A stretch of DNA of 64,000 bases from positions 1,116,001-1,180,000 of the forward strand of contig NC_090599.1 of assembly GCF_000497125.1 (NCBI RefSeq), written 5' to 3'. Shown here in pieces: positions 10,455-64,000 of the stretch (within the stretch, counting starts at the first letter, position 1; each line of letters starts with the position of its first letter). The stretch is from Spironucleus salmonicida (Eukaryota). The notes beneath the pieces were generated by a model. That model saw only the letters and a list, made by a program, of their open reading frames with translations, was not told the origin of the DNA and ran no database searches. The position numbers and the translations under genes were made by a program.

Positions 10455-10479
10455 TCTCTATGGAGTAATACTAATCGGC

Positions 10480-12306: not shown

Positions 12307-12331
12307 TCTCTATGGAGTAATACTAATCGGC

Positions 12332-35043: not shown

Positions 35044-35065
35044 ATTATACGGCAAGCATCATATG

Positions 35066-35977: not shown

Positions 35978-36322
35978 ATGTCGGTCCACGCCGGATATTT
36001 GTAGTATTGTATTCCACTATACGCTCCCAAAGAAATGCTCGGCCTGAACGACGCGGGGGCGCGCTGCGTTCCCTAGCTGCTGCGCCAGATCCGCCTCGCC
36101 TCCCCGGCCCAGGACCCCGTCGTGCACCGCAACTTCCTCCGCCAGCAGGCACGCCCGTTCCCCACCAGCAGCCTGCGCGTGAGGATCACCTGCCAGAAGA
36201 CCGCCGCCAAGAAGCTGCTCGCGCGCGTGGCCGACCTCGCCGAGCGCTCCCACCAGATCGACCTGAAGGTGAAGCGCATGATCCAGCGGCTGGACTTCCT
36301 GGTCGGTATCAACGAGCTGTGA
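35978..36322 (+). CDS. hypothetical protein (GC-rich; start 35978 or 36035)
   Basis: MLGLNDAGARCVPQLLRQIRLASPAQDPVVHRNFLRQ...GINEL-TGA; strong G/C bias at third positions in this frame. Confidence 0.6.
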
Positions 36323-36331
36323 CCGCTCCGA

Positions 36332-37234: not shown

Positions 37235-37896
37235 GTGATCGCATTATCTAAGTACTTACTGCAATGCGCATTCTAGCCGAATTAGTTAATTTATATTGTA
37301 CTAAGTGAGCAAAAGTAATTTGACTGATTTAATAGTTTAATGCTAATTCGAGCTGTGGTTCCCTAAAAAAAGCTGCAAGTCTGTTAATTTTTTACATACA
37401 TCGCAGAGATAAACTTTTCGGTGTTAGTTTTATTTCTGTAAGAAATTCACTGGCTCTAATTTTGAGATTATTAATTTAAAATTAAAGTTATTAAAATCGA
37501 AAATGATATTTATCGACGATCTTTTAGGAATTTTCGCGAAGCTAATACCGATTTGAATCCTAGCTTCAATACCCTATTTTAACCTAAAGGAAACTGCTTT
37601 CTTAAGGGTAAAGTCCAGATTTTCTAAAAGTTGCATTTTGAATTCAGCTTTTCGCTCCGATTTTTCTTATAGACAGAAGTTTATATTTTCCCCTATTAAG
37701 CAGCCCGCAAATCCGAAAATCTCTACTAATTACATCCAATTAATTGAAAATTTAACTCTCCGCTCCACCCTAAATTTCACAAACTCCACACATTATTATA
37801 CATTAATTACAACAATTTACGAAATTCCCTTATTTTTCTTTTCTTTCCACTCCACAATTTTTAACTACCATTATTATATACCCAATTGACATCCCA

Positions 37897-39147: not shown

Positions 39148-39477
39148 TATTTAAGAGGAGTGGAATGAAAATAAATTGATAAAATATGCTTTATAGTATA
39201 TAATAACGCAAATTTTGATTGTAAAGGAAAGTAGAATCATACGATTGATTTAGATTAGTAAAAATTTAAGAAAAAAGTATTTCATATTATTTATAAAATA
39301 AGTAAATTAGTATAAACATTTTTGAAGAACAATAATGTTGATAATTAATTTAAAAGTAGATTATATACTTAATGATCAAATAAAATTACGACGATTAATT
39401 CATTATAAGCAAAATTGAAATTATTAGGTAAAAGTATGGTTCGTGAAATAAAAAGTAATTACACCCATAATAATTAC

Positions 39478-40035
39478 TCATCTCAGTATTGTATTTAAAA
39501 ATTCATTTACTAACCCTTTTTCTTAGGTTAATAAAACTTTAAATTTATTTGTATTTTAAACAATTATATCGCTAAAATAAAACCATAAGAAGGAAAATTC
39601 TTAATAGTTTTACCGTCCCTAGGAATTTTCTAGTTAGCTGTATAGAATATCCTATTTAGCCTGTTAATTAGACTCTAGTTTATCAATAAGGTCCATAGAA
39701 ATAAGAGGGTAAATATCGTTTAAGACAAACTATCTATCTTCCAACAAAATATAAGATTCGGTAAAATTGGTTGGGTTGTAAAGTTATTAAATTATTGCAT
39801 CTTTAAGGACTTTTTTATCGCTAAAGTATGTTATAATTATTAGGTCCGACGGATGATAAATCTGTGACTTAATAACTTAATTAAACGATTTGTTAAATTA
39901 ACTTTCAAAACTAGATTTCATGGTGATAAGATTTATATGGTCGTGATTATTTATAATGTTGATAAGTTTCTTCTCATCAATTTTTGTATTCATCATAGTT
40001 GCAAATAAATAGTATGATTATAGAATAAGGTTCAT
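39478..40035 (-). CDS. hypothetical protein (185 aa)
   Basis: Intact code-6 ORF MNLILQSYYLFATMMNTKIDEKK...NTILR-TGA. Confidence 0.6.
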
Positions 40036-40589
40036 ATTTTAATGATATTAATATTTATATTATATAATAACTCTAAGCTTTTGGTTTATAATATCCGGAA
40101 ACTCACTAAGTATGAGAGTTTATTTTTAGAATCAAATAAATAAATTACTTTAAATAAATGATTCGTAACAAGATTCTAGTTTTTCTAATAGTTTCAGTTG
40201 ATGCCGTATACTTTAGAACATATATTTTATACTCAACAATAATCTCAATACATATAACAATATAACTGATTATTTTATTCTTTATAAAATGTCTTAAGTT
40301 CGGTTATCAAAATTTATGTCTAGGAAATTCAAAGTAGAGCACCCTATTTTAATTATAGACACGAATACAGATAATATAGTTTCCTATGATAAAGTTTTAA
40401 CTCCTAAAGCTAGCTTAAAAAGGTTCATTTTTAAGAAAGCAGATAGAGCCATTAACGATGAATAATGACTGACAAGGGTAAATGTCATACTATTAAGTGA
40501 TTTTATAGTTATATTGACATTATAGTCTATTCTAACGCAGATTGGTAATTATGGATAATAATTATTTTCCTTTTCTTTTCCTTTTCATA

Positions 40590-41111
40590 ATGCTAATTTA
40601 GTTCACTTCAACTCACCAAATTAATCTATAGGCTAATCTGCTTAACATTCCGTTTAAAGAAGCAGTTGAGATTTCTTTACGATAATAATTTACAGGAAGG
40701 TAGCTTGATAAACAGGGAATTTGTGTTGCAATATCAAAAGTAATTTCATATACTTAACCAAAAATCTTATAAAATATGGGTAATTTATCACTTGAAGCTA
40801 CATTTGAAGCTATAGTTTTTAGGCCTTTCCGTGGTGAGCGTATTTGGGCACAGGTAGAGTAATAAAATTTAAGTCAAATATAACTTTCGACCCCATTTGG
40901 CTCGGTGGTTGTTGCTAGATTAAACTTATTTGAGGGAAGCGAATTTGATGGTTAAGAGTGGATCTGGAGATTTTAAGGAGTAGAAAATTATATTCAAAAT
41001 GGTAATACATGTTTTGTTAGAGTTATTGATGTAAAGGTAAATGGTGAAGGTATTGAAATTTAGGCTAGCATGGATGAACCCGGCCTTGGGGATCTTAGAT
41101 GGTGGAGATGA
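40590..41111 (+). CDS. POLR3H: RNA polymerase III subunit RPC25/RPC8
   Basis: GICVAI, FEAIVFRPFRGE, EWIWRF, ASMDEPGLGDLRWW C-terminus. Confidence 0.9.
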
Positions 41112-41284
41112 GTGAATTATATTTTAATTCATATTTGCCTATAAAATACATTTAATATTATATTTTATTGTTTCTTTTTTAAATTTTCTGTTTTTATAAT
41201 AATATATTAATGTGATAAAGTATAATTTATATTCTGTCATTACCTATTTAATAAACTGTCATTACCCAAAAATTGTGTTTATAA

Positions 41285-42637
41285 ATGGCGAAGTGCAAAT
41301 CTGTTAAGGCTTAAAAAGACTAAGTCATACGTCCTACTGCTAAGTCAGGGGGAGATACAAGAAATACAAGAATGATCCTAATGATGGTTATGGTTGTAGG
41401 ATATATGTTTGCAGAGCTTATTGTTGGTATTTATGGTAATTCACTCACATTGGTAGGAGATGCATTCCATATGATTTCTGATGCATCCGCTCTTGTTATT
41501 GGATATATATCCATAAAAATTGGTAAAAGAAAAGCTAGTGGAGAGTATACATTCGGATACTAAAGATATGAGATTCTTGGAGCTTTCTTTAATGCTAGTT
41601 TCTTAGTTTCAACTGCATTCTTTTTACTCACTGAAATAATTCAGAAATTTATAACTCCAACACCAATAAGCGATGTTGACTTAGTTCTTTATGTTGCTAT
41701 TGGTGGTTTAGTCGTTAATATTGTAGGAATGTTCTTATTTGGTCATAATCATGGAGGACACAGTCACGGTCACGATCATTCTCACGGCCATTCTCACGGT
41801 CATTCTCATGGTCATGATCATGAACACGATCACGAGAGTCATGAGGAATGTGATGAACATGAGACCATTCATGACCATCATGAACATGATGAAGATCAAT
41901 GTAATAAAGAGAATCTCTTAGGCTGCGATAATAATTATGAAAAAGAATCCCATGATCATGAAGAAGAACATGATCATTGTTGCTAACATGATCATGCTGA
42001 AGTTACAGTAGAATCTGGTACGATATAAGTTTCTAATGAAATAGAACATAAGGTGAATCATAGTGATAAGCTCTAAGAATAGAAAAAGACGAAAAAGGTT
42101 GATATGGCCATGCATGGGGTTTTCCTTCATGTATTGGGCGATTTTATTGGCTCGATAATAGTTATTATTGCCGCATTATCCTAAAAGTTTGGGGCTCATC
42201 TTCCTGGCATCTCATATATTGATCCTAGCTGCTCATTAATCATGGTAGGTATTTTGGTAAATTCATCAATACCATTATTACGGGATTCTGGTAAGATACT
42301 TCTTCTACATTCATAAGTCGATTCAATAATGTTGAAATAACAAATATTAACAGTTAAGCACGTAGCGGGTGTTCATGAGGTTCACTCTTGGGCATTTACT
42401 CCTGAAAAATAAGTTGGCCATGTTCATATAGTAATGCGTAAAAGTATGCTAGATTAATATGAGACGGTTGTATCGGATGTCAAGGAAGTATTCCATAAAC
42501 ATGATATTCATAATACTACAGTGGCTGTTGAGTTTGTTGATGATAATGAGAAGGATCTTGATGCATGTTTCGTTAAATAAGGTTGCAAAGCATTCACTGG
42601 TATGTGCTGTGAAGACTAAATACAAAAAATATAGTGA
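41285..42637 (+). CDS. CDF/ZnT zinc transporter with His-rich loop (450 aa)
   Basis: SLTLVGDAFHMISD, YTFGYQRYEILGAFFN, (HG/HS/HD)n loop, MHGVFLHVLGDFIGS, VHEVHSW. Confidence 0.95.
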
Positions 42638-42650
42638 TTGATTTGGTCAT

Positions 42651-43073
42651 TCAAAACTATTTATTTTCTAATGCACTAACAAGAAATTTAAAGTCTTAGT
42701 AATTAATTTTCTTAGTCTTGCCCAATAAGCAGTAAATCTCCATTTCGCTTAGTTTCACATTGAAAAAATTAAATAACATGTTACTAACCAGAGGTATGTT
42801 AAGTGAATTATTGCCTTTCTGATCTAACGCTTTAAACAAAAATTCATCTCTATCTTAATATTAATGTAGTTCGCTAAACGATTTAAATTCTTTCTTTTCG
42901 AGAAAACCACTATTATCTAAATCGAATGCCATTAAAATCTAATCTATGGTGAACCCGAATCTAGCTGATAATTCTTACGCATAAGGTTCTAGTTCTAACA
43001 TTGATATTTTACCGTCTTTATTATCATCTATCTTTTTCATGTCAAGAGTTTATACACCTGCACTACAGCCCAT
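42651..43073 (-). CDS. EF-hand protein with MGCS N-terminus (140 aa)
   Basis: DDNKDGKISMLE and DLDNSGFLEKKE calcium-binding loops. Confidence 0.88.
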
Positions 43074-43309
43074 TTAAGTAAAAAAATATGAATAACTTTA
43101 TATATAAACTTATTAATATGTTCATTTAAACTGATTTCACAATAAATATATTAATACGCTTTTGAGTCATAAATTACCAAAGCGAAAAACTTTAATCTAA
43201 TTATACAATTAAGACATCTAAACTCCCAACCACCGTCTATATTCAATAAATAAATTCCAACAAGTGAACATTTTATACCAAATAAATCGTACTTACAGAA
43301 ACAGCGAAA

Positions 43310-43600
43310 ATGCTGAATTCCTTTCTGTGGGGACTCATTTTGGTAGTCTGGGCGGCGCTTGCACTGCATATCTGCGCTGTATTCGCTTCCTCGCGTCAGT
43401 TTCTCAACGAATTCAGCTACCGAAAGCGTACGAATCTGCTGATCCAAATGGCGCGAGAGAGGCAGACCACGCTGAGGATTGCACAGCGCGCGTTGAGGTG
43501 CGAGAACACCTGCGACATAATTCAGCGAAACATCGTAATTTTGGGCCAAAACCAAAAGGCCCTGGCAGCGAACGCCCGGAAACGGGCATTTTTGGAGTGA
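43310..43600 (+). CDS. small hypothetical protein with N-terminal hydrophobic segment (96 aa)
   Basis: MLNSFLWGLILVVWAALALHICAVFA...; ends GAG-TGA. Confidence 0.55.
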   Translation: MLNSFLWGLILVVWAALALHICAVFASSRQFLNEFSYRKRTNLLIQMARERQTTLRIAQRALRCENTCDIIQRNIVILGQNQKALAANARKRAFLE

Positions 43601-43668
43601 ATTTTTAGCGCGTTCAATTTTGGACGAAATCCGACTTGCGCATTCAAAATTCAATTCAAATTTGACTT

Positions 43669-44655
43669 TCACTTCCTCTGCCACATTCCTCCCAAATCTG
43701 CCTGCAACTCGTTCTGCATCTCTCGCAAATCCCACTCCTCGATGCTGCTGATCTGCAGCTCGAGATCGTTCCGGGCGTTGATCTGGGCGATGCAGAACGC
43801 GCCGCTTTCGACGATCTTCCCGGTCACGAGAAATGCATTTTCAGTGATTTTTTCGTTCCGGAAAACGAAGTTTTCGCTCCTTTTGAAGAGGAATTTTTTT
43901 CCGGAAGGAGCGAAAGTTTTAAGGTCGTTCAAGTACGTGGAAAGGAGGTCGAATTAAATATTTTTTACGCGGCTCAGAATTGCTTGCCAGACCAGGAATG
44001 CGAGCAGCTCAACGTTGAGGAGTTGCAGGTCGAGCACGAGCGCGACGGTGGAGAGGCAGAAGTTAAGCCGCTGGCGATCGGTTTTCTCGACGAAGCTTGC
44101 GACTTCCAGCGCATTTTGGCCGAAGTTCGGCACCGAAATGCAGGCTTCTGGGCGATAGTTTCGGAGCAAGTTTGCGAAGTCCAGACCGACCTGGAAAGCG
44201 CCCTCGAGCCCGAATGCTGTGGAGGTCGCCACGCCGACGTGCATCTCACGCGCGGAAACGCGTGAAAATACTAGGGTAACCTGGAAACTCAGAGATTTGA
44301 AGATAATTTCGGCGGATCTGTGTGCAAAGGCTGACAGATATTCCGTTGAGGGCACTTCAACGGGCTGGGGAGGTGTTTTCGAGAAAACTAGAACCCCTGC
44401 AGTCAACTTCGACTGTAGCGGGCGGTTTAGTCTGATCAACTGGTTAAAGGTGTCTAGGATGCGCTAGAACGATTCATGGGTCGTGAAAACTGTCAGAATG
44501 AAGTGAAATGGAGTTTTAGCCACGAGCGGTTTAGGAGGTTTGTAGAGAAAGTAGCGTTATGGGGAGTACGAGCGATTCGTGGCTGGATGGGTTGCAGGTT
44601 TTTTGATGCCAGAAGCGTTTTTGAGAATAAATGAGGGAAGCGCTGTAAGTGGCAT
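43669..44655 (-). CDS. hypothetical protein (328 aa)
   Basis: Code 6 joins track ORFs 43954-44439 and 43669-43932 with start MPLTALPSFILKN. Confidence 0.7.
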
Positions 44656-45531
44656 TTTAAAATATTATATAATATATACTACATATTTCATTAATTTTGT
44701 TTTCTCTGTAGAATACCTCAAATTATTTCGTCCGACTTGTAATTTCTAAGTTAGCTGATATTATTTTTTCTATATAAGGTTTCAATTAACTCAACTCGCT
44801 GGTGTTGATAATGATAATATTCTTCTAGCCGTTATGTGAATTTATTATCAACAATACATTCTTCTTCTAACATTTCAGGAGTCTTTAAAATCGATTTACA
44901 TTTTTTATAACATGTTTACTTCTTAATAATGTACAGATTTTATTCCTTCTACGAATACTGAAATGCCTTATGGTATATGAAAAATAATATTATTTATTTC
45001 AGTTGTTCCTTCTTGTAGGCAACAATATCTATTACTTTAATTGGTTTTGCAAGAAAACTATTAATGTAAGCTTAAAGGTCATACTTTATCTATGATTTCT
45101 TAAGAATTTTCCAAAAGTTATATATATTTGTATCACATACCAAGTTTTAATAAATTGTATTTAGATGATTTTCTTTGTCTTCATATTAAAAACTTGAAGT
45201 AAAATTACAATTATTGTTATAATCAGAATTGTTTTACTTACATTAAAATACACCGGATAAATTGTCAATTTTATCATAGTTTTAGAACTTTTCCAAAACC
45301 TTCTGCGATTATGTGCCATTAGATTTTTTTACTAGCTACCCTTACTTAATTGAGTTATTACAATATATATATAAGAGTGCAAATTAAGCTTGACATTGCC
45401 AATAACTTGTTTTTAATAATGTTATTGAATCGCTTACGGGAACGCTAGCTATTTAATTTGTACTCTTTTCATTTATACCAAAAATACAACAAACATATAG
45501 AAATATAATACTATTTTATAGCAATAAAATA

Positions 45532-46275
45532 ATGTCAGACGATCTGAAAACGCAAGGTAATGAAGCCCTTAAACAGGGCCGTATTTACGACTCCATATAG
45601 CTATATTCTGAAGCAATATAAATAGACCCATCTAATCATATTATATTTTCTAATCGATCTAATGCCTATTACTAAGATAAAAATTTCGCATTTGCCTTAA
45701 AAGACGCAACGGAGACAATTACCTTAGCTTCCAAATTTGAAAAAGGATACATACGTGCTTATGATGCATTGGTTGCCTTAAATAGATTTCCTGAAGGAGT
45801 AAAGCAAATAAAAACAGGGTTGACCGCCATCCCAAGTGGACCAATTTTGACATAAAAATACCAGGAATTCTAGAAGTTTATAATACCAAATCTGACTTCT
45901 ATTCAGCTTATTACTAACCCAGTACCGTTTGTAAAAAACGTCCCAACAGTAATAGAATGCTTTGCTACTTGGTGTGGGCCCTGCAAATAGATGATTCCCC
46001 ATTTAGCAAAGTTCCAAGACACTTATAATAATAGGATAAACTTGATCAGTGTTTCTTCTGAACCTACCGGAAAACTGGAAGGGTTTCTGAAGGGAAATCC
46101 CGAAATGAAGCTGTACAACGTTGGATTTGACGGAAGCGGGGTGGTTTAGCATATTATGGGTCTCCAGGGGGTATAGGGCATTCCACATTGTTTTGTTTAC
46201 GATAAAGATGGAACCCAAATATTCAGCGGCCATCCCAGCCAGCTGGATCAGTTTGTCTGCAGTTTAGGAATCTGA
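45532..46275 (+). CDS. TPR (STI1-like) plus thioredoxin-fold fusion (247 aa)
   Basis: LKTQGNEALKQG...YSEAIQIDPSNHIIFSNRSNAY...KGYIR; FATWCGPCKQMIPHL; GIPHCFVYDKDG..SGHP. Confidence 0.9.
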
Positions 46276-46336
46276 AGCATTTAAAATTCAATTATTATAT
46301 AATAATTATAATTATATTATTTTCCTACTTCATTTA

Positions 46337-48439
46337 ATGTTTTATTCTTTGTCTGCCAAACTAACAGCTAAACGTGATCCAACATACCTGTAATTATCAT
46401 TAGAGCAGAAATAGGTGTATGATATGGTAGTTTTTGAGCGTAAATCTGTATTTTTCACCGGTCAGGCGGGATCTGGTAAATCTTTCCTCATCCGAGCGAT
46501 AATTCAGGGTCTGTAACGACTTTTGCTACCAGAACAGCTGGCTGTGACTGCAATGACAGGAATTGCTGCCGTAAATATCGCAGGGTAAACGCTGCACTCC
46601 CTATTTGCATCACCTCTAAATTTTGACACGGAGGACCCCGAGACGAATGTGTAAAAACAGTTAAAAATGGCACTCGTGCGCCCTCCGCTGCGCGAGCGGT
46701 TGAATGCGTTACAGACTATCCTGATTGACGAAGTTTCGATGCTCCAGGGATCAGTTTTCGACACCCTGGAGCTGCTTCTCCGGAAGGTAAAAAGATCGAG
46801 CAAATTCTTCGGGGATGTGTAATTGGTACTCTGTGGTGACTTCATGCAACTACCACCAATAAAAAAGTAGGGCCGGCCGAAGTTGCTGTTCGAGAGCAGC
46901 TACTTCTCAAAAATTATGTGCGTCAAGCTAACTGTTCAATTCAGATAGCAAGACGACCAGCTTATCAACATGCTGAACAAGATCCGAAACGGTTAGGTTG
47001 ACGACCAGGTTAAAAATTTGATTTTATCGCGTAAGAAAACCGAACAGGAGATCAACAGGGACGAGGAGAGCAAATTAAAATTTTCATATGGTTAGTGGAA
47101 ATAGAACATTGAAAACATGAAATAATTTATTTTAAATTCAGAGTAGCAAAGTCTTAAAATGGGATTTTTTAAGAAGCTTGAGCTTCTTCATCAGACTAAA
47201 AATGCTGAAATTCAGATCAGGCAGGCAAAGTATGTACCGCCAGTTTTTCCTATAAGGTTGTATGCTTACAAAACGCAGGTCGAATAATTTAACATATCTA
47301 GGCTTAATTCTCAGAAAAGGTAAGTTTTCACAGTTAATGCGTTAGATGAAGGTATAACTGATAAGATAGAAAAGCCAGAGGCATAAATCTTATTCTCAAT
47401 TGGAGCATAAGTCATGTTAACAAAAAATATAGATGTTACTGCTGGGCTGTGTAATGGATCAGTTGGTATAATAGTGGAGATCAAATCTAAAACTGAAAGT
47501 TAGATACTAAATGTGATATTAGATGAAGTTGAAGTATTCGTAAAATTTAGTTCTTCTACTGTTCCAATAAAAAGTATTGATACAGAACAGATAGGCTCTA
47601 ATGGAAAAGATAGAGTTGGCCTACGTAAATAACTTCCGTTATAGTTATCTTATGCAATATCTATCCACAAATCATAAGGTTTAACTTTAGATGCGGCTGT
47701 TATGGATTTAAAGAATTGCTTTGAAAATGGGTAAGTTTATGTGGCTCTTAGTAGAATAAGATCATTAGAAGGTTTGGTGGTGACTGGAATTAATTTTGAT
47801 AAAATAACAGCTGATTAAAGCAGTATGGTATTCTGCGAAGAAGTTAAAAGTATTGAAGAGTTAGGTTTATTTCCGTCAGGAAATAACCTAATATAGTCAT
47901 TTACAATCGAGTCAGATATTTAACTTACTAAAGAGTACGATTCTATACCAAAGTCAGTAGATTTACGTGTTAAAAGCCCACACAACATTAAAAAATCACC
48001 TACCTTAGAATTACCATTGTTCTCCTTAGCAGCCTCCAGTCCTATTTAAAACGAATTAACATCAGAATAGGCATCACCTTCGTTTCCTGTTCATTAGTAA
48101 GATTTATAAACATATATATAACAAAAGTCATAACAAATATGCACATAATCGCCTAGCTTGAAAAGAGGTAAACTAACAATAAAACCAAAAAATACTGAAG
48201 TAGTTTTCATAAAAGCAGCTGATGTGGTCGATATTAGTGATTCTGATAATCTGGTAGAACCAGTATAGAAATTATAATCACCTACTATAGAATCTTAGCC
48301 AAAATTAACATAAGAAGATGTCCCTATTATTCCTATTCTCCAAGATATAAATATGGAAAGTAATGCTATTCATGAGGAACCTGAAAAATAAACACCTAAG
48401 AATTTCTTTGATTTTGAATATTATTTAAAATTTTTGTGA
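46337..48439 (+). CDS. PIF1: PIF1-family 5'-3' DNA helicase (700 aa)
   Basis: TGQAGSGKS, TAMTGIAA, TLHS, IDEVSM, GDFMQLPP, GAQVMLTKN..LCNGSVG, QLPLQLSYAISIHKSQGLTLD, GQVYVALSR. Confidence 0.95.
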
Positions 48440-48495
48440 AAGAAGTTGCTAGATTTCCTACAAGTTTAAGTGATAAGTTTTTCCCGCTCCAAAAA

Positions 48496-49866
48496 ATGAA
48501 ACATATTCGTATATTTCTTAGAAAACCTAAACGGCTAGTTCCATTTACTCCAAAATACAATGGAACAATCCCTAGTTCTGAAAAATTATAATAGTAATCA
48601 ACTATTCTTACTAGATCAACGCCTAAAACCCCAGTCATAAAAAAACCAGTCGAGGTCCCAACCCCTGCTCCTGCAAAAACATATCCTTATAAGCATACAT
48701 ATTTCTTTACCTAGGCATCACTTTGTCAGCGCTCCCTTATTAATTCGCTCGTTACTTCCATGGCATCTTTAGATCCTACAGTTACGGTTTCACCTCTCAT
48801 GCGTACAAAGCTTTCTGATTACTAGTATGCTCAATTTTTCATCAAATTCTAGGTACCTGAGTTATATTTTGCTGATTTGGGACCTTACTTAGAAGGAAAA
48901 TTTATCACAAAAATTCATATTGTTTATCGAGCAAATGCTATTGGCCTCCATAAAGAGCTTATTCACAACTGCAATTATTTTATAGCACGAAATAGGTTGA
49001 CAGCATCATCACTACCTGAAGCCTATCTCCATTTTACATAAACTGCTGTTATATTTGGTGGAAACGTTGCAGACCAGACTGCCAGTTAATATTCTCCTAA
49101 TGGGCCGTTTCTTGGGGTAGCAGTTTGTGCAGGAATTACTAAACTCTTTTGTTTACTAGGGCGTATGCTTGGTCTTAATGTTATAGGGACTGTAGGCAAT
49201 ACGAAATCTGGTGAGTTCCACGCCTGGAATTTATTACAGCTTGGCAAAGGATGGTATCACGCTGATTTTACTTGGTGCTTAACGGACAGTTTTCCAAGGT
49301 ATTTCTAGATTAGTGATACAGAACTAGGGCATGTGAGTTTACATATTTTACCTAAATGTATTAATAAAGAGAAAAGTTATCTTGCAACACACAAAATGGT
49401 ATCTGAGCGTCCTGATGAGGTAGTTAAGTGTTTTGAAAGATAGTACTTAAATGGGCGTGTATGTATATAAAATACTTAACTTGCTAATAAGGATGTAATA
49501 AAAATTATTGAGGATGGGTTAGAGATCTTTAATCGGAGACTTCGACGTAAATATTAATTGGGGAATAAAGATTTGAGAGTCGTAGGATAGACAAGTTTAG
49601 ACGTATTTACTGATGGTAATTATGTGTGCTTGTAATCAGCAGGACGGGTCAACCCTTAAAAAATTCACCTTATATATATCCTAGGAGACAAATCTGGTAT
49701 CGTTTCTATTTCTGAAAAGTTAGTAATTAAGCAACTTCTAGGTGGTAAACACGAATTTCGTGTGGAGCTTAACTGTTTGAACGCATAAAGAGCGGAAACA
49801 CAGTTTTGGTTTTGCGGGAAATGCTCCTAATCTCATCATACGAGACTAAGCGTTATATTTTCATGA
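48496..49866 (+). CDS. transglutaminase-like superfamily protein (may extend further if the T-run near 49805 is an error)
   Basis: Cys-His-Asp triad motifs AVCAGI, HAWNLLQLGKGWYHADFTW. Confidence 0.85.
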
Positions 49867-51047
49867 GCGAATTGAAGGTAGTAAATAATAGAATCAATTT
49901 CTGCCTCAAATAAGACCGCAACATCGCAATAGCTCCCACAGCGAGTCGGCTTTCACGGGGTGGAACATTCCTCATGAAAACGACGGTTGCTAGACTCAAA
50001 TCATAACTAAAATAACGCTTATAGGTAAATATAGTCTAATAATGGGAGTATTGTATTATTAAAGTAGAGTGAGTATAAATTCACTTGGAGTCAGATTTAT
50101 CGGCCGAATTTATTGTTAGCACTCTCTAGTTGCTTTTTATTATACTCATATTTCGTTCGATCTTCTCATAAAAGCGTTCATATGCCGTAGTTCTCTTTAT
50201 GAGGTCATGTGCGACAATTTTTTAATTATTAAGTTTAAACAAAATGTCTATCCATTTTTAACAATGAGGAGGTTTCAGGAACTGCATAGTTGATTATATG
50301 ACACATAGTAGAGGAATTGATATTGCTATCTATAATACTAGAATAAGAAGTTATAATGGTGTTCTTGCCATTTTATGGAAGAATTTTTTAATTTTTATCA
50401 TTGTGTATGGGTAAGTAACAACTACATTTCCTAAACTGAAAACAAATAATTTATTTTTAGATTAAATTATCGCATGCACATCTATATATATTAAAATTAT
50501 TTTAACCATAAATTTCAAATTATGAAACTGACACAAAATTTTATTCAAGATTAATATTTATTAAAAAAATATATCTATTGTTGATTATTATGAAAAATAT
50601 ATTTCTTAGTTTCAATTTATTTTGTTAGAAATAATTAAACGCCTTATGTACTTTAATTATTAGTTATTAATTAATATTCAAAACTAGGTTGTAAGTTTGA
50701 AATACCTAGTTATAGTATAGTACCCGATCTACTAAAAATTATAACAATAATTATTCGTAAATATAATTTGATATATTTAAAAATAATATATTTATATAAT
50801 AAACTATAAAACTGGCTTTAAGTAATATAGTGTGCTTCTGCCTTATTTTAATTCATAAAGAAGTTTTATAGTGATTGTTATTCGAATCTGTTGTCAAATT
50901 TTAGTAATATAACTATTATTTACATTTATAAACGATTTATTCTTGTATATATTTAATCTAGTAATTTAATGGTTCTGCTATCTTGAATTAGTAAAGACGT
51001 CTATATTATAATTTAATATTTTTACCATCCAGTTACTAACCCTATAA

Positions 51048-52515
51048 ATGTTAATCTGCTTATTTTAAAATATAATTACTGATCCATTTGCAGAAATGTA
51101 GTCAAAACCCTGTTTTTAAGGAATTTTAGATAAAATAATCAACTTTTGCCCAGAATTTTCTCCACACTCTGCTGTACACTAGATTTTAGCGTTACAGCTT
51201 ACAAATTGTTATAGGGTGAGTGCTGGATTATATAAACTTAATTGTGCAGATGCGCTAAATGTCGATTCACCTAATTAAAAATCTGTCAAAAATTGTTTAA
51301 AATAACTTGGAAATGATGAAATTGGAACACTTTTAGGATTATACGCATAAATAAATTGATAGAATCTAAGATGGGTGCTTTTATTTGACTATTAATAATT
51401 TTAACTAAAAAGCAGCAGTTGTTAGTAGGAATTTATTGAATTCTTCAATAAATTCTGTTAACTAACTTGATATCATGGGGTAGAAATTAGGATAGAATAT
51501 TGAAGTCAGTACGGAGTTGTAAAGCTAATTTTAAGCTCTTTCTGTCCTTTATAAGTTCATGAAAAGGAGTAAATTAGTGCTTTTAAAGAGTAGTAAAAAC
51601 AGCTTAAAATATAGCAAATTATCTACAAACTCATAAAAAATACTACGATAATTTCTGATAATTTTCAGACATAAGCATAAAAGTCGAATGTTATTTAAAA
51701 CAATATATTTAGAGTATGAAATAGCTGGGAATTAGTGTAGAGAATTTAGATTTTAATGTTGAAAGTATGGAAAAATCTTCAAAAAATATTGTAAAAGGAC
51801 TAAACTAGTCAAACAAGATTATATCAGAGCAACTAGAGAAAGTAATTAATATTGATGCTAATCTCATTAAGGTGGAAATTTATCCCAAAAATCAATTGAA
51901 GCTTAATAGATACATATAAACTAATAGACGACAATTAGCAGAAAGTATCATTCGAAGTAACTAAAATTAATGCAGAAATATCCTAAATACTTAAAAACTT
52001 AGATAATATAAATTACATAACAAAAGTCTATATTTCAATCCTTCCAGTATAATCTGGTTTATAAGCTTTCATATTGGCGTTTATCTCTCCTTTATTATGT
52101 CATATGCTTTTTAGTATGGATTTTAGCCTATTCGCCGTATTGCTATGTTATTTTAGGAATTGAAATCAGCATTGTAAATTTCTCTAAGCTAGTATCACAC
52201 ATGTTGTTTTGCAATATTTATGTACCAATATTGTAAAGTTCAACAAACTAAAGTTATTAAGCTAGGCAGAAGTGATCTTTACAGAGCAGGAGTTACAACA
52301 TTTATGCATTTTTAAAAGGTTCAAACGAATAATAATGCATGTATTAACCAAATTAGTAGCATTTCTTATCTAATCCGTTTATAGAGATTTTATTCGCTAA
52401 AATAGAAGTTGTGGAGTATTTAAGAGGCAAAAGTGGATAAATATGTGAGTACGCCATAAAGACATATCAAGCATAGTATTAGCCAAATCAAACTATGAGA
52501 GCGTCAAATAAGTGA
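51048..52515 (+). pseudogene. GEX1/KAR5/Brambleberry-like nuclear-fusion protein candidate, frameshifted as assembled (end approximate)
   Basis: PCFQGILDKIINFC...ILALQLTNCYRVSAGLYKLNC...VKNCLKQL...[shift]IDRIQDGCFYL, then coiled coil and C-terminal hydrophobic segments. Confidence 0.6.
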
Positions 52516-52801
52516 ATTCGAGTTTATTTCTGCAGTTTTTATCTGATATTGTCCATCAGTAAACCAATCTATCTTGCATACATTATCATTCACATTACAA
52601 CCAAGCCAATCAAGTAATTCTAAACATGGAACCTCATAATTAAGTGAAATTAAGCACCTACGTCACAAATAAACTGTCTTTTCAACTCCAACGTGCCTAC
52701 ATACCAATTTTCCGCCTTAAATAAAAAACCAATATTATCATTTTTACAAATAAATTATAATTATTATATATTATATATAATATATTTTCACTAAAGTACT
52801 G

Positions 52802-55800
52802 GTTATAATTATATAGGTCCGACGGATGATAAATCTGTGACTTAATTACTTAATTAAACGATTTGTTAAATTAACTTTTCAAAACTAGATTTCATGGTGA
52901 TAAGATTTATATGGTCGTGATTATTTATAATGTTGATAAGTTTCTTCTCATCAATTTTTATTCATCATAGTTGCAAAATAAATAGTTGATATAGAATAAG
53001 GTTCATATTTTATGATATTAATATTTATATTATATAATAACTCTAAGCTTTTGGTTTATAAATATCCGGAAAATCCACTAAGTATGAGAGTTTATTTTTA
53101 GAATCAAATAAATAAATTACTTTAAATAAATGATTCGTAACAAGATTCTAGTTTTTCTAATAGTTTCAGTTTGATGCCGTATACTTTAGAACATATATTT
53201 TATACTTAACAATAATCTCAATACATATAACAATATAACTGATTATTTTATCTTTATAAATGTCTTAAGTTCGGTTATCAAAATTTATGTCTAGGAAATT
53301 CAAAGTAGAGCACCCTATTTTAATTATAGACACGAATACAGATAATAAGTTTCCTATGATAAAGTTTTAACTCCTAAAGCTAGCTTAAAAAGGTTCATTT
53401 TTAAGAAAGGCAGATAGAGCCATTAACGATGAATAATGACTGACAAGGGTAAATGTCATACTATTAAGTGATTTTATAGTATATTTGACATTATGTCTAT
53501 TCTAACGCAGATTGTAATTATGGATAATAATTATTTCCTTTTTCTTTCCTTTTCATAATGCTAATTTAGTTCACTTCAACTCACCAATTAATCATAGGCT
53601 AATCTGCTTAACATCCGTTTAAGAAGCAGTTGAGATTTCTTTACGATAATAATTATCAGGAAGGTAGTTGATAAACAGGAATTTGTGTTGCAATATCAAA
53701 AGTAATTTCATATACTTAACCAAAATCTTTAAAATATGGGTAATTTATCACTTGAAGCTACATTTGAAGCTATAGTTTTAGGCCTTTCCGTGGTGAGCGT
53801 ATTTGGGCACAGGTAGAGTAATAAAATTTAAGTCAAATATAACTTTCGACCCCATTGGCTCGGTGGTTGTTGCTAGATTAAACTTATTTGAGGGAAGCGA
53901 ATTTGATGGTTAAGAGTGGATCTGGAGATTTTAAGGAGTAGAAAAATTATATTCAAAAATGTGAATTACATGTTTGTTAGAGTTATTGATGTAAGGTAAA
54001 TGGTGAAGGTATTGAATTTAGGCTAGCATGGATGAACCCGGCCTTGGGATCTTAGATGGTGGAGATGGTGAATTATATTTTAATTCATATTTGCTATAAA
54101 ATACATTAATATTATATTTTATTGTTTCTTTTTTAATTTCTGTTTTATAATATATATATTAATTGTGATAAAGTATATTATATTCTGTCATTACCTATTT
54201 AATAAACTGCATTTACCCAAAAATTGTGTTTATAAATGGCGAAGTTGCAAATCTGTTAAGGCTTAAAAAGACTAAGTCATACTCCTACTGCTAAGTCAGG
54301 GGAGATACAAGATACAAGAATGATCCTAATGATGGTTATGGTTGTAGGATATATGTTTGCAGAGCTTTATTGTTGGTATTTATTGGTAATCACTCACATT
54401 GGTAGGAGATGCATTCCATATGATTTCTGATGCATTCCGCTCTTGTTATTGGATATATATCCATAAAAATTGGTAAAAGAAAAGCTAGTGGAGAGTATAC
54501 ATTCGGATACTAAAGATTGAGATTCTTGGAGCTTTCTTTATGCTAGTTTCTTAGTTTCAACTGCATTCTTTTTACTCACTGAAATAATTCAGAAATTATA
54601 TAACTCCAACACCAATAAGCGATGTTGACTTAGTCTTTATGTTGCTATTGGTGGTTTAGTCGTATAATATTGTAGGAATGTTTCTTATTTGGTCATAATC
54701 ATCGGAGGACACAGTCACGGTCACGATCATTCTCACGGCCATTCTCACGGTCATTCTCATGGTCATTGATCATGAACACGATCACGAGAGTCATGGAGAA
54801 TGTATGAACATGAGACCATTCATGACCATCATGAACATGATGAAGATCAATGTATAAAGAGAATCTCTTAGGCTGCGATAATAATATGAAAAAGAATCCC
54901 TGATCATGAAGAAGAACATGATCATTGTTGCTAACATGATCATGCTTGAAGTTACAGTAGAATCTGGTACGATATAAGTTTCTAATGAAATAGAACATAA
55001 GGTGAATCATAGTGATAAGCTCTAAGAATAGAAAAAGACGAAAAAGGTTGATATGGCATAGCATGGGTTTTCCTTCATGTATTGGCGATTTTATTGGCTC
55101 GATTAATAGTTATTATTGCCGCATTATCCTAAAAGTTTGGCTCATCTTCCTGGCATCTATATATTGATCCTAGCTGCTCATTAATCATGGTAGGTATTTT
55201 GGTAAATTCATCAATACCATTATTACGGGATTCTGGTAAGATACTTCTTCTACATTCATAAGTCGATTCAATAATGTTGAAATAACAAATATTAACAGTT
55301 AAGCACGTAGCGGGTGTTCATGAGGTTCACTCTTGGGCATTTACTCCTGAAAAAATAAGTTGGCCATGTTCATATAGTAATGCGTAAAAGTATGCTAGAT
55401 TAATATGAGACGGTTGTATCGGATGTCAAGGAAGTATTCCATAAACATGATATTCATAATACTACAGTGGCTGTTGAGTTTGTTGATGTGATAATGAGAA
55501 GGATCTTGATGCATGTTTCGTTAAATAAGGTTGCAAGCATTCACTGGTATGTGCTGTGAAGACTAATACAAAAAAATTAGTGATTGATTTGGTCATTCAA
55601 AAACTATTTATTTTCTAATGCACTAACAAGAAATTTAAAGATCTTAGTAATTAATTTTCTTAGTCTTGCCCAATAAGCAGTAAATCTCCATTTCGCTTAG
55701 TTCACATTGAAAAAATTAAATAACAGTACTAACCAGAGGTATGTTAAGTGAATTATTGCCTTTCTGATCTAACGCTTTAAAACAAAAATTCATCTCTATA

Positions 55801-58800
55801 CTTAATATTAATGTATCGCTAAACGATTTAATTCTTCTTTTCGAGGAAAACCACATTATCTAATCGAATGCCATTAAAATCTAATCTATGGTGAACCCGA
55901 ATCTAGCTGATAATTCTTACGCATAAGGTTTCTAGTTCTAACATTGATATTTTACCGTCTTTATTATCATCTATCTTTTTTCATGTCAAGAGTTTATACA
56001 CCTGCACTACAGCCCATTTAAGTAAAAAAATATGAATAACTTATATATAAACTTATTAATATGTTCATTTAAACTGATTTCAACAATAAATATATTAATA
56101 CGCTTTTGAGTCATAAATTACCAAAGCGAAAACTTTAATCTAATTATACAATTAAGACATCTAAACTCCCAACACCGTCTATATTCAATAAATAAATTCC
56201 AACAAGTGAACATTTTATACCAAATAAATCGTACTTACAGAGAAACAGCGAAAAATGCTGAATTCCTTTCTGTGGGGACTCATTTTGGTAGTCTGGGCGG
56301 CGCTTTGCACTGCATATCTGCGCTGTATTCGCTTCCTCGCGTCAGTTTCTCAACGAATTCAGCTACCGAAAGCGTACGAATCTGCTGATCCAATGGCGCG
56401 AGAGAGGCAGACCACGCTTGAGGATTGCACAGCGCGCGTTGAGGTGCGAGAACACCGCGACATAATTCAGCGAAACATCTAATTTTGGGCCAAAACCAAA
56501 AGGCCCTGGCAGCGAACGCCCGGAAACGGGCATTTTTGGAGTGAATTTTTTAGCGCGTTCAATTTTGGACGAAATCCGACTTGCGCATTCAAAATTCAAT
56601 TCAAATTTGACTTTCACTTCCTCTGCCACATTCCTCCCAAATCTGCCTGCAACCGTTCTGCATCTCTCGCAATCCACTCCTCGATGCTGCTGATCTGCAA
56701 GTCGAGATCGTTCCGGCGTTGATCTGGGCGATGCAGAACGCGCCGCTTTCGACGATCTTCCGGTCACGAGAAATGCATTTTCAGTGATTTTTTCGTTCGG
56801 AAAACGAAGTTTTCGCTCTTTTGAAGAGGAATTTTTTTCCGGAAGGAGCGAAATTTTAAGGTCGTTCAAGTACGTGGAAAGGAGGTCGAATTAAATATTT
56901 TTACGCGGCTAGAATTGCTTGCCAGACCAGGAATGCGAGCAGCTTCAACGTTGAGGAGTTGCAGGTCGAGCACGAGCGCGACGGTGGAGAGGCAGAAGTT
57001 AAGCCGCTGGCCGATCGGTTTTTCTCGCTGAAGCTTGCGACTCCAGCGCATTTTGGGCCGAAGTTCGCACCGAAATGCAGGCTTCTGGGCGATAGTTCGG
57101 AGCAAGTTTGCGAAGTCCAGACCGACCTGGAAAGCGCCCTCGAGCCCGAATGCTTGGAGGTCGCCACGCCGACGTGCATCTCACGCGCGGAAACGCGTGA
57201 AATTACTAGGGTAACCTGGAAACTCAGAGATTTGAAGATAATTTCGGCGGATCTGTGTGCAAAGGCTGACAATATTCCGTTGAGGCACTTCAACGGGCTG
57301 GGGAGGTGTTTTCGAGAAAACTAGAACCCCTGCAGTCAACTTCGACTGTAGCGGGGCGGTTTAGTCTGATCAACTGGTTAAAGGTGTCTAGGATGCGCTA
57401 TGAACGATTCATGGGTCGTGAAAACTGTCAGAAGAAGTGAATGGAGTTTAGCCACGAGCGGTTTAGAGGTTTGTAGAGAAAGTAGCGTTATGGGAGTACG
57501 AGCGATTCGTGGCTGGATGGGTTGCAGGTTTTTGATGCCAGAAGCGTTTTTGAGAATAAATGAGGGAAGCGCTGTAAGTGGCATTTAAAATATTATATAT
57601 ATATACTACATATTCATTAATTTTTGTTTTCTCTGTAGAATACCTCAATTATTTCGGCGACTTGTAATTTCTAAGTTAGTGATATTATTTTTTCTATATA
57701 AGGTTTCAATTAACTCAACTCGCTGGTGTTGATAATGATAATATTCTTCTAGCCGTTATGTGAATTTATTATCAACAATACATTTCTTCTTCAACATTTC
57801 AGGAGTCTTTAAAATCGATTTACATTTTTTATAACATGTTTACTTCTTAATAATTGTACAGATTTTATTCCTTCTACGAATACTGAAATGCCTTATGGTA
57901 TATGAAAATAATATTATTTATTTCAGTTGTTCCTTCTTGTAGGCAACAATATCTATTACTTTAATTGGTTTTTGCAAGAAAACTATTAATGTAAGCTTAA
58001 GGTCATACTTTATCTATGATTTCTTAAGAATTTTCCAAAAGTTATATATATTGTATCACATACCAAGTTTTAATAAATTGTATTTAGATTGATTTTCTTT
58101 GTCTTCATATTAAAAACTTGAAGTAAAATTACAATTATTGTTATAAATCAGAATTGTTTTACTTACATTAAAATACACCGGATAAATTGTCAATTTTATC
58201 ATAGTTTTAGAAACTTTTCCAAAACCTTCTGCGATTATTGCCATTAGATTTTTTTACTAGCTACCCTTACTTAATTGAGTTATTACAATATATATATAAG
58301 AGTGCAAATTAAGCTTGACATTGCCAATAACTTGTTTTTAATAATGTTATTGAATCGCTTACGGGAACGCTAGCTATTTAATTTGTACTCTTTTCATTTT
58401 ACCAAAAATACAACAAACATATAGAAAATATAATACTATTTTATAGCAATAAATAATGTCAGACGATCTGAAAACGCAAGGTAATGAAGCCCTTAAACAG
58501 GGCCGTATTTACGACTCCATATAGCTATATTCTGAAGCAATATAAATAGACCCATCTAATCAATATATTTTTCTAATCGATCTAATGCCTATTACTAAGA
58601 TAAAAATTTCGCATTTGCCTTAAAAGACGCAACGGAGACAATTACCTTAGCTTCCAAATTTGAAAAAGGATACATACGTGCTTATGATGCATTGGTTGCC
58701 TTTAAATAGATTCCTGAAGGAGTAAAGCAAATAAAAACAGGGTTGACCGCCATCCCAAGTGGACCAATTTTGACATAAAAAACCAGGAATTCTAGAAGTT

Positions 58801-61800
58801 TTATAATACCAAATCTGACTTCTATTCAGCTTATTACTAACCCAGTACCGTTTGTAAAAAAGTCCCAACAGTAATAGAATGCTTTGCTACTTGGTGTGGG
58901 CCTGCAAATAGATGATTCCCCATTTAGCAAAGTTCCAAGACACTTATAATAATAGGATAAACTTGATCAGTGTTTCTTTGAACCTACCGGAAAACTGGAA
59001 GGGTTCTGAAGGGAAATCCCGAAATTGAGCTGTACAACGTTGGATTTGACGGAAGCGGGGTGGTTTAGCATATTATGGGTCTCCAGGGGGTATAGGGCAT
59101 TCCACATTGTTTTGTTTACGATAAAGATGGAACCCAAATATTCGCGCCATCCCAGCCAGCTGATCAGTTTGTCTGCAGTTTAGGAATCTGAAGCATTTAA
59201 AATTCAATTTATTATAATATTATAATTATATTATTTTCCTACTTCATTTAATGTTTTATTCTTTGTCTGCCAAACTAACAGCTAAACGTGATCCAACATA
59301 CCTGTAATTATCATTAGAGCAGAAATAGGTGTATGATATGGTAGTTTTTGAGCGTAAATCTGTATTTTTCACCGGTCAGGCGGATCTGGTAAATCTTTCC
59401 TCATCCGAGCAGTAATTCAGGGTCTGTAACGACTTTTGCTACCAGAACAGCTGGCTGTGACTGCAATGACAGGAATGCTGCCTAAATATCGCAGGGTAAA
59501 CGCTGCACTCCTATTTGCATCACCTCTAAATTTTGACACGGAGGACCCCGAGACGAATGTGTAAAAACAGTTAAAAATGGCACTCGTGCGCCTCCGCTGC
59601 GCGAGCGGTTGAATGCGTTACAGACTATCCTGATTGACGAAGTTTCGATGCTCCAGGATCAGTTTTCGACACCTGAGCTGCTTCTCCGGAAGGTAAAAAG
59701 ATCGAGCAAATTCTTCGGAGTGTAATTGGTACTCTGTGGTGACTTCATGCCAACTACCACCAATAAAAAAAGTAGGGCCGGCCGAAGTTGCTGTTCGAGA
59801 GCAGCTACTTCTCAAAATTATGTGCGTCAAGCTAACTGTTCAATTCAGATAGCAGAACGACCAGGCTTATCAACATGCGAACAAGATCCGAAACGGTTAG
59901 GTTGACGACCAGGTTAAAAATTTGATTTTATCGCGCTAAGAAAACCGAACAGGAGATCAACAGGGACGAGGAGAAGCAATATTAAAATTTTCATATGGTT
60001 AGTGGAAATAGAACATTGAAAACATGAAATAATTATTTAAATTCAGAGTAGCAAAGTTTAAAATGGGATTTTTTAAGAAGCTTGAGCTTCTTCATCAGAC
60101 TAAAAATGCGAAATTCAGATCAGCAGGCAAAGTATTGTACCGCCAGTTTTTTCCTATAAGGTTGTATGCTTACAAAACGCAGGTCGAATAATTTAACATA
60201 TCTAGGCTTAATTCTCAGAAAAGGTAAGTTTTCACAGTTAATGCGTTAGATGAAGGTTATAATGATAAGATAGAAAAGCCAGAGCATAAATCTTATTCTC
60301 AATTGGAGCATAAGTCATGTTAACAAAAAATATAGATGTTACTGCTGGGCTGTGTAATGGATCAGTTGGTATAATAGTGGAGATCAAATCTAAAACTGAA
60401 AGTTAGATACTAAATGTGATATTAGATGAAGTTGAAGTATTTCGTAAATTTAGTTCTTCTACTGTTTCCAATAAAAAGTATTTGATACAGAACAGATAGC
60501 TCTAATGGAAAAGATAGAGTTGGCCTACGTAAAATAACTTCCGTTATAGTTATTCTTATGCAATATCTATCCACAAATCATAAGGTTTAACTTTAGATGC
60601 GGCTGTTATGGATTTAAAGAATTGTCTTGAAATGGGTAAGTTTATTGTGCTCTTAGTAGAATAAGATCATTAAAGGTTTGGTGGTGACTGGAATTAATTT
60701 TGATAAATAACAGCTGATTAAAGCAGTATGGTATTCTGCGAAGAAGTTAAAAGTATTGAAGAGTTAGTTTATTTCCGTCAGGAAATAACCTAATATAGTC
60801 ATTTACAATCGAGTCAGATATTTAATTACTAAAGAGTACGATTCTATACCCAAAGTCAGTAGATTTACGTGTTAAAAGCCCACACAACATTAAAAAATCA
60901 CCTACCTAGAATACCATTGTTCTCCTTAGCAGCCTCCAGTCCTATTTAAAACGAATTAACATCAGAATAGGCATCACCTTCGTTTCCTGTTCATTAGTAA
61001 GATTATATAAACATATATATAACAAAAGTCATAACAAATATGCACATAATCGCCTAGCTTGAAAGAGGTAAACTAAACAATAAAACCAAAAAATACTGAA
61101 GTAGTTTTTCATAAAAGCAGCTGATGTGGTCGATATTAGTGATTCTGATAATCTGGTAGAACCAGTATAGAAATTATAATCACCTACTATAGAATCTTAG
61201 CCAAAATTAACATAAGAAGATGTCCCTATTATTCCTATTTCTCCAAGATATAAATATGGAAAGTAATGCTATTCATGAGGAACCTGAAAAATTAAACACC
61301 TAAGAATTTCTTTGATTTTGAATATTATTTAAAATTTTGTGAAAGAAGTTGCTAGTTTCCTACAAGTTTAAGTGATAAGTTTTTCCCGCTCCAAAAATGA
61401 AACATTATCGATATTTCTTAGAAAACCTAAACGGCTAGTTCCATTTACTCCAAAATACAATGGAACAATCCCTAGTTCTGAAAAATTATAATAGTAATCA
61501 ACTATTCTTACTAGATCAACGCCTAAAACCCAGTCATAAAAAAACCAGTCGAGGTCCCAACCCCTGCTCCTGCAAAAAACATCCTTATAAGCATACATAT
61601 TTCTTTACCTAGGCATCACTTGTCAGCGCTCCCTTATTAATTCGCTCGTTACTTCCATGGCATCTTTAGATCCTACAGTTACGTTTCACCTCTCATGCGT
61701 ACAAAGCTTTCTGATTACTAGTATGCTCAATTTTCATCAAATTCTAGGTACCTGAGTTATATTTTGCTGATTTGGGACCTTACTTAGAAGGGAAAATTTA

Positions 61801-63191
61801 TCACAAAAATTCTATTGTTTATCGAGCAAATGCTATTGGCCTCCATAAAGAGGCTTATCACAACTGCAATTATTTTATAGCACGAAATAGGTTGACAGCA
61901 TCATCACTACCTGAAGCCTATCTCCATTTTACATAAACTGCTGTTATATTGGTGGAAACGTTGCAGACCAGACTGCCAGTTAATATTCTCCTAATGGGCC
62001 GTTTCTTGGGGTAGCAGTTTGTGCAGGAATTACTAAACTCTTTTGTTTACTAGCGTATGCTTGGTCTTAATGTTATAGGGACTGTAGGCAATACGAAAAT
62101 CTGGTGAGTTCCACGCCTGGAATTTATTACAGCTTGGCAAAGGATGGATCACGCTGATGATTTACTTGGTGCTTAACGGACAGTTTTCCAAGGTATTTCT
62201 AGATTAGTGATACACGAACTAGGGCATGTGAGTTTACATATTTACCTAAATGTATTAATAAGAGAAAAGTTATCTTGCAACACACAAAATGGTATCTGAA
62301 GCGTCCTGATGAGTAGTTAAGTGTTTTGAAAGATAGTATTAAATGGGCGTGTATGTATATAAAATACTTAACTTGCTAATAAGGATGTAATAAAAATTAT
62401 TGAGGATGGGTTTAGAGATCTTTATATCGGAGACTTCGACGTAAATATTAATTGGGGAATAAAGATTGAGAGTCGTAGGATAGAAAAGTTTAGACGTATT
62501 TACTGATGGTAATTATGTGTGCTTGTAATCAGCAGGACGGGTCAACCCTTAAAAAATTCACCTTATATATATCCTAGGAGACAAATCTGGTATCGTTTCT
62601 ATTCTGAAAAAGTTAGTAATTAAGCAACTTCTAGGTGGTAAACACGAATTTCGTGTGGAGCTTAACTGTTTGAACGCATAAAGAGCGGAAACACAGTTTG
62701 GTTTTGCGGGAAATGCTCCTAATCTCATCATACGAGACTAAGCTATATATTTCATGAGCGAATTGAAGTAGTAAATAAAATAGAATCAATTTCTTGCTCA
62801 AATAAGACCGCCAACATCGCAATAGCTCCCACAGCGAGTCGGCTTTCACGGGTGGAACTTCCTCATGAAAACGACGGTTGCTAGACTCAAATCATAACTA
62901 AAATAACGCTTATAGTAAATATAGTCTAATATATGGGAGTATTGTATTATTAAAGTAGAGTGAGTATAATTCACTTGGAGTCAGATTTATCGGCCGAATT
63001 TATTGTTAGCACTCTCTAGTTGCTTTTTATTATTACTCATATTTCGTTCGATCTTCTCATAAAAGCGTTCATATGCCGTAGTTCTCTTTATGAGTCATGT
63101 GCGACAATTTTTTAATTATTAAGTTTAAACAAAATGTCTATCCATTTTTAAAATTTCCTGCATAGTTGATTTATATGACACATAGTAGAGG
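52802..63191 (+). repeat. second copy of 39830-50313 with many 1-nt indels; broken RPC25 (~53558-54070), ZnT (~54236-55583), EF-hand (~55597-56017), TPR-Trx (~58456-59191), PIF1 (~59251-61342) and transglutaminase-like (~61397-62760) copies
   Basis: Colinear near-identity by eye; differences are mostly single-base indels. Confidence 0.95.
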
Positions 63192-64000
63192 TAATTCGAG
63201 CTGTGGTTCCCTAAAAAAAGCTGCAAGTCTGTTAATTTTTTACATACATCGCAGAGATAAACTTTTCGGTGTTAGTTTTATTTCTGTAAGAAATTCACTG
63301 GCTCTAATTTTGAGATTATTAATTTAAAATTAAAGTTATTAAAATCGAAAATGATATTTATCGACGATCTTTTAGGAATTTTCGCGAAGCTAATACCGAT
63401 TTGAATCCTAGCTTCAATACCCTATTTTAACCTAAAGGAAACTGCTTTCTTAAGGGTAAAGTCCAGATTTTCTAAAAGTTGCATTTTGAATTCAGCTTTT
63501 CGCTCCGATTTTTCTTATAGACAGAAGTTTATATTTTCCCCTATTAAGCAGCCCGCAAATCCGAAAATCTCTACTAATTACATCCAATTAATTGAAAATT
63601 TAACTCTCCGCTCCACCCTAAATTTCACAACTCCACACATTATTATACATTAATTACAACAATTTACGAAATTCCCTTATTTTTCTTTTCTTTCCACTCC
63701 ACAATTTTTAACTACCATTATTATATACCCAATTGACATCCATCACTTTTCGCCCTTCCTCTCTCTGTCATCCCTCCTGACAATCTCAACCTTGTCTACG
63801 TAAGCCCATTCGGGCCCCACAAACGACCAATTCGGCCAAAACAGCCTCAATTTTGCTTTTAAACGACCTCAAGTTGCTTCATTTTCTGCTCTTCGCCGCC
63901 CTCGCAAAGCTGTTTTTTGAGCGCAATTTTCGACTCCAAATCGGCAAAATCGTTAAAGTTGAAGCCCGCATCCGCGAAAACGGCGATTCCGCTATAGTCG
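63192..64000 (+). repeat. second copy of 37344-38152, including the 3' end of the Bfr1-like gene; runs off the right edge
   Basis: TAATTCGAGCTGTGGTTCCC... occurs at both 37344 and 63192. Confidence 0.95.

Follow-up and report, generated by a model that had tools for sequence, protein, structure and literature searches.

The window (the whole 64,000-nucleotide stretch of Spironucleus salmonicida DNA that was analysed) carries on its forward strand a frameshifted copy of SS50377_24249, a code-6 gene attributed here to the GEX1/KAR5 family; the copy lies within a duplicated block, and the intact gene lies beyond the window. The features of the locus, in window coordinates, are:

37344–52792, no strand: first copy of a 15.45-kb block (A-B-C), which recurs at window coordinates 63192–78674
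51048–52515, + strand: frameshifted copy of the GEX1/KAR5-family gene SS50377_24249 (code 6)
51048–51080, + strand: short hydrophobic N-terminus, a putative divergent signal peptide (aa 1–11; mean hydropathy of aa 2–11, 1.87)
51111–51378, + strand: Cys-rich domain (C22/C34/C54/C66/C83/C110), interrupted by the first frameshift in the window copy
51391–52029, + strand: long helical, coiled-coil-like region (aa about 115–330; predicted helix, heptad signal)
52058–52404, + strand: three hydrophobic segments (aa 341–359, 369–401 and 442–460 of the intact protein; Kyte-Doolittle), scrambled by frameshifts in the window copy
52511–52515, + strand: AGTGA, the stop codon overlapping a putative polyadenylation signal (motif as in PMC3916229)
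52793–63191, no strand: B′, a low-accuracy copy of B and probable gap-fill sequence
63192–64000, no strand: start of the second full block copy, which bears the intact gene further on

The window copy opens with an ATG at 51048, immediately preceded by AAA, and closes with a TGA at 52513–52515, both as an earlier note on this DNA had placed them. The AAA-ATG context is an initiator-like pattern known for S. salmonicida, for which PMC3916229 describes this pattern together with weak or divergent signal peptides and the AGTGA stop-plus-polyadenylation motif. The first code-6 frame reads MLICLF..., continues through C22-x11-C34, LALQLTNC54, C66 and C83, and stops after 103 aa; the GCFYL element (C110) is found in the next frame, past a first shift caused by one extra A at about 51349–51353. 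The coiled coil and hydrophobic segments described in the same note are recovered as helical and hydrophobic pieces in frames that alternate up to the terminal TGA. Relative to the intact copy the window gene contains 28 indel columns (27 bases missing, 1 extra), 24 of which adjoin an identical base. Introns and programmed frameshifts are ruled out as the source of the shifts; the intact copy can be read without them, and the known introns of the species number four (PMC9509377). The 103-aa truncated product (51048–51359) is a protein entry in NCBI, UniRef and nr; it is also the representative of the 90% cluster for the intact gene, so the full-length protein is hidden from length-limited searches.

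A DNA search of the genome with the window gene returns two matches, the window itself and a 98% copy 25.85 kb downstream. The latter, on contig C4 at 1192898–1194391, is a single open code-6 frame of 497 codons, while the other two + frames hold 6 and 13 TGA stops; an entry with exactly its protein sequence carries the public name 'hypothetical protein SS50377_24249 [Spironucleus salmonicida]'. The open frame, together with the diplomonad relatives that the protein finds (E 1.6e-14 to 2e-9, below), shows that the pattern exceeds chance. When SS50377_24249 and its Hexamita ortholog are searched as proteins against the genome, these two loci alone are returned. Of the 31-mers of the intact copy, 739 of 1,771 are missing from the window, and a fraction of 1.00 of its 173 sampled words is present in four DNA runs (from one study, possibly the assembly's own source); the intact spelling therefore occurs in the reads, a result that says nothing on the absence of the broken spelling.

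The region is laid out as X-A-B-C-B′-A-B-C-Y. The low-accuracy duplicated segment said to adjoin the gene is real in the assembly: B′ (matched over 52785–63196) is a 96.9% copy of 39814–50318 (B, 39823–50314), with 296 indel columns and 36 substitutions between them. The two A-B-C copies (15.45 kb) differ by 42 indel columns and by 0 substitutions; in 38 of these columns the window copy lacks a base, 38 adjoin an identical base, and 28 fall within the GEX1-family gene. Counted per 500 bp toward the junction, the indels run 1, 7 and 20 in the last 1.5 kb of the block, which holds the gene, and a small cluster of 5 lies at the block's other end. From the junction strings, flank C before B′ (50315–52792) and flank A after it (63192–65669) measure 2,478 bp each, give or take 2 bases of microhomology. 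The assembly is described in PMC9509377 as contigs stitched by optical map, with gaps filled by PBJelly.

The earlier suggestion that the shifts may be errors is supported by the existence of an intact copy and by errors distributed as at the end of a contig; the window copy is very likely an assembly artefact, a second copy written from a poorly polished contig end. In this reading, gap filling would have bridged two contig ends that in fact overlapped, and would have written in the stretch now found between the equal-sized flanks. It is improbable that the tandem block is instead real and the window copy a true pseudogene, decaying through homopolymer slippage beside an intact paralog. Duplications are common in this assembly (they make up 19.2% of it, and its authors verified the two largest by read depth; PMC9509377) and NCBI carries the truncated product as a protein; however, the gene holds its 28 indels without any substitution, there are none across 15.45 kb, and a real block is further opposed by the error gradient toward the junction, the equal 2,478-bp flanks and the 3%, mostly indel, divergence of the insert between them. 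With the artefact as the preferred reading, about 26 kb of the chromosome is probably false duplication, and broken gene copies from it are already in public protein databases.

Other genes of the region are affected as well. B′ (52793–63191) contains broken copies of the cation-efflux (intact at 41285–42637), TPR-thioredoxin, PIF1 and transglutaminase-like genes, the longest PIF1 frame being 261 codons in B′ vs 776; these broken genes likely raise the assembly's totals of genes and of pseudogenes. The transglutaminase-like gene at 48418–49866 has a one-base loss at 49795, and runs to 482 codons in the window vs 500 in the downstream copy. Elsewhere in the window, a tandem array at 1775–13894 comprises about 6.5 units of 1,852 bp that are 99.7–99.8% identical, with a GC content of about 49% vs about 30% around it. 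The gene at 33067–33851, which we take to be annexin-like from its repeat motif, is 91.5% like window coordinates 79870–80654, and a GC-rich 2.7-kb stretch (34493–37221) is 99.3% like 82771–85499, with an inverted partial copy near 90.5–91.7 kb.

In the protein encoded by the intact copy, the six Cys (C22, C34, C54, C66, C83 and C110) are conserved without exception in an alignment of 5 diplomonad sequences, as are A48, L49, T52, Y55, Q102, R105 and D108; the Cys spacing is 12-20-12-17-27, vs 12-23-14-11-25 in Kar5. AlphaFold, run with 5 sequences, yields a model of low overall quality (mean pLDDT 50.6), which was used for secondary structure only; it gives a helical Cys domain (pLDDT about 61–84 per 10-residue block), a continuous helix over 94–337 at low confidence, and an ill-defined C-terminus. 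The heptad-period amplitude is 3.8–6.7 in the helical region vs 0.8–1.6 inside the Cys domain. By simple hydropathy, three hydrophobic segments are seen where the earlier note called for a membrane-segment prediction, with 19-residue Kyte-Doolittle peaks of 1.86, 1.80/1.42 and 2.01 at aa 341–359, 369–401 and 442–460. The hydrophobic start is present in all four full-length orthologs examined and is very short; signal peptides of S. salmonicida are divergent. A sequence search of the PDB with SS50377_24249 gives 0 matches, and Foldseek against the PDB gives 0 at E<=0.001, returning generic coiled coils only.

According to PMC4291462, the defining features of the GEX1/KAR5/Brambleberry family are a signal peptide, a domain with six Cys, one coiled coil or two, and two to three membrane segments at the C-terminus; plant GEX1 has three such segments (PMC10609895). 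In a phmmer search of 1.84 billion representative proteins, 5 matches reach E<=0.001. They are the 103-aa product of the window itself, an unnamed 256-aa protein (1.6e-14), Giardia muris GMRT_20199 (1.4e-10), an unnamed 686-aa protein (8.8e-10) and Hexamita inflata CAL5990827.1 (2e-9). GMRT_20199 is one of five G. muris identifiers in the Gex1/KAR5 row of PMC8516963 Supplementary Data 2 (2021), beside 20508, 20520, 23984 and 24442 and G. intestinalis GL50803_5536; GMRT_20199 and three members of its cluster stand in that row, a listing itself computational, in which S. salmonicida and Trepomonas are blank. H. inflata has four orthologs on two contigs, carrying no gene name.

Language-model look-alikes in Atlas were sought with two Cys domains, one from the G. 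muris and one from the H. inflata ortholog, and the top three clusters are the same for both: a Tht1-bearing cluster (29% of members), 'Tht1-like nuclear fusion protein' and, at rank 3, 'protein brambleberry'. The best scores for the two queries are 0.89, and 0.92 with 172 shared features, so that one is below 0.9; the two orthologs are only about 20–30% alike. The Tht1 profile proposed as a check does not match SS50377_24249: the Pfam Tht1 model (PF04163, a fungal model) has no match at E<=10 in this protein or in any of four relatives, among them the G. muris protein published as Gex1, and a PF04163 search of the S. salmonicida genome is blank, which is not proof of absence. Pfam on the window fragments and the intact protein returns coiled-coil noise only; a word-based homolog search with SS50377_24249 finds none at E<=0.01 among 7104 candidates, a Cys-domain profile returns only its own 4 inputs among 7999 scored, and a search with a region of one further sequence returns only itself among 168. 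These sequence searches return no yeast, plant, fish or other animal member and so give no direct link to one; the family call is reached by way of the published Giardia Gex1 listing and the Atlas leads.

The match to the published G. muris Gex1, the six invariant Cys with Kar5-like spacing and the Atlas look-alikes support the GEX1/KAR5 call made in the earlier note, and SS50377_24249 is in all likelihood a member of the GEX1/KAR5/Brambleberry family. It is very improbable that the protein has no kinship with GEX1 and resembles it by convergence, being a coiled-coil membrane protein with Cys that is specific to diplomonads; in favor of this reading, the searches that were run give no Pfam, PDB or out-of-diplomonad sequence match, but the G. 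muris ortholog is published as Gex1 (PMC8516963), two orthologs so unlike each other reach the same top three Atlas clusters, and Cys number, spacing and full domain order are as in the family. As a whole, with family membership and the artefactual window copy taken together, the sequence evidence indicates that S. salmonicida probably has one functional GEX1/KAR5/Brambleberry ortholog, SS50377_24249.

The closest known counterpart is Giardia Gex1. GMRT_20199 is 28% identical to the S. salmonicida protein in the database search and 24% over 394 columns pairwise; the two have in common all six Cys, the LxLTxCY and QxxRxxDxCxYL motifs, the length class and the domain order, but the gene is single in S. 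salmonicida, which uses code 6, while G. muris has five. Kar5p and Tht1 likewise feature a six-Cys domain with similar Cys gaps, coiled coils and C-terminal membrane segments, and they begin with a signal peptide, which in SS50377_24249 (497 aa) is putative; the latter differs in its missing PF04163 match, in having three predicted hydrophobic segments vs two, and in a Cys domain that begins directly after the putative signal peptide. Plant GEX1 shares the Cys-rich domain, the coiled coils and the number of membrane segments, three also being predicted in SS50377_24249, and the likeness to Brambleberry lies in the rank-3 Atlas cluster of both orthologs. Unlike the organisms in which GEX1 (plants, Chlamydomonas, Plasmodium) and Brambleberry are known, S. 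salmonicida has no known gametes, and HAP2 is not detected in it.

Earlier publications already describe the GEX1 family and report it from metamonads, Giardia among them. In the literature searched, the sole study that combines GEX1 and Spironucleus is PMC8516963, with its blank entry, although the supplements of Ning 2013 and Speijer 2015 may list the gene; the gene identifiers are not mentioned in the literature searched, and the main text of the H. inflata genome paper contains neither 'gex1' nor 'meiosis'. The blank for S. salmonicida and Trepomonas in the 2021 inventory reads as a branch loss, yet S. salmonicida and H. inflata carry the gene under 'hypothetical' names. The sequence evidence thus supports a new GEX1/KAR5 member that fills the reported gap in the Spironucleus-Hexamita branch; it is not evidence of sex. 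The relevance to cryptic sex suggested in the earlier note is overstated, as Gex1 was already known in Giardia and other metamonads and its presence alone is no proof of sex.

By analogy with its family, SS50377_24249 is likely to act in nuclear-envelope fusion. The N-terminal signal would direct entry into the ER and nuclear envelope, the disulfide-bonded Cys domain and long helix would occupy the luminal space that separates the two nuclear membranes, and the anchor would be formed by two or three membrane segments near the C-terminus; the protein would collect where two nuclei touch and couple outer- to inner-membrane fusion. Its most likely use, at roughly an even chance, is within-cell nuclear fusion in the cyst stage, where the two resident nuclei of the binucleate cell may fuse during encystation, like Giardia diplomixis, with Spo11, Dmc1 and Hop2. 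In the Giardia cyst the two nuclei fuse and exchange DNA, a process termed diplomixis (PMC8700996). Expression of GL50803_5536, which is tied to SS50377_24249 through the published PMC8516963 table only, is given as FPKM 10, 8, 5, 40 and 38 in the trophozoite, at 90 min, 7 h and 22 h, and in the cyst (PMC4807828); a second data set gives log2FC of 0.69 at 14 h, +1.0 at 21 h, +1.97 in cysts and 0 after excystation, over a trophozoite baseline of log2 CPM about 6 (PMC8700996). This rise parallels that of Dmc1A/Rad51 GL50803_13104 and Spo11; genes rising in Giardia number 598 at 21 h and 1786 of 4963 (36%) in cysts. The roughly 4-fold rise of Giardia Gex1 in late encystation and cysts fits within-cell nuclear fusion, as modest to weak evidence.

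The same expression data bear on a vegetative role, in which the ortholog would have been redeployed to nuclear-envelope remodelling (mitosis, or keeping and resealing the two nuclei). The trophozoite baseline of Giardia Gex1 is clear, and Brambleberry fuses karyomeres in fish embryos, a non-sexual mitotic fusion (PMC4291462); a role of this kind is nonetheless unlikely, as both data sets show the late-encystation rise in step with Dmc1A/Rad51 GL50803_13104 and Spo11. Retention of the ortholog for true, unseen sex (cell fusion, karyogamy and meiosis) rather than within-cell fusion appears doubtful. The family acts in zygote karyogamy in yeast, plants, Chlamydomonas and Plasmodium (PMC4291462, PMC10609895), several copies are kept in free-living H. 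inflata and in G. muris, and the PMC8516963 table lists Spo11, Dmc1 and Hop2 for S. salmonicida, with no listed Hap2 or Mnd1. Against this, the gamete fusogen Hap2 is blank in all five diplomonad columns of that table, and a PF10699 (HAP2) search of the S. salmonicida genome is blank, which is not proof of absence; the Hap2 absence is weak because Gex1 had escaped this table too, and Tht1 the search tool. Metamonada are also described as having no observed sexual stage (PMC8516963).

Within-cell fusion in the cyst remains the favored use. Cyst-wall genes are present in S. salmonicida, though cysts could not be induced. It can be proposed tentatively that both diplomonad subfamilies (that of Giardia, and that of Spironucleus and Hexamita) lost HAP2 but retained GEX1 because GEX1 is the diplomixis fusogen. 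If true, diplomixis would be ancestral to diplomonads and its membrane-fusion factor would be named for the first time; a cyst stage in which nuclei fuse, so far unseen, would also be indicated for S. salmonicida. Together with the late-encystation rise of the Giardia copy, the gene puts a name to a candidate nuclear-fusion factor of diplomonad cysts, one that is present in two transfectable species, S. salmonicida and Giardia.
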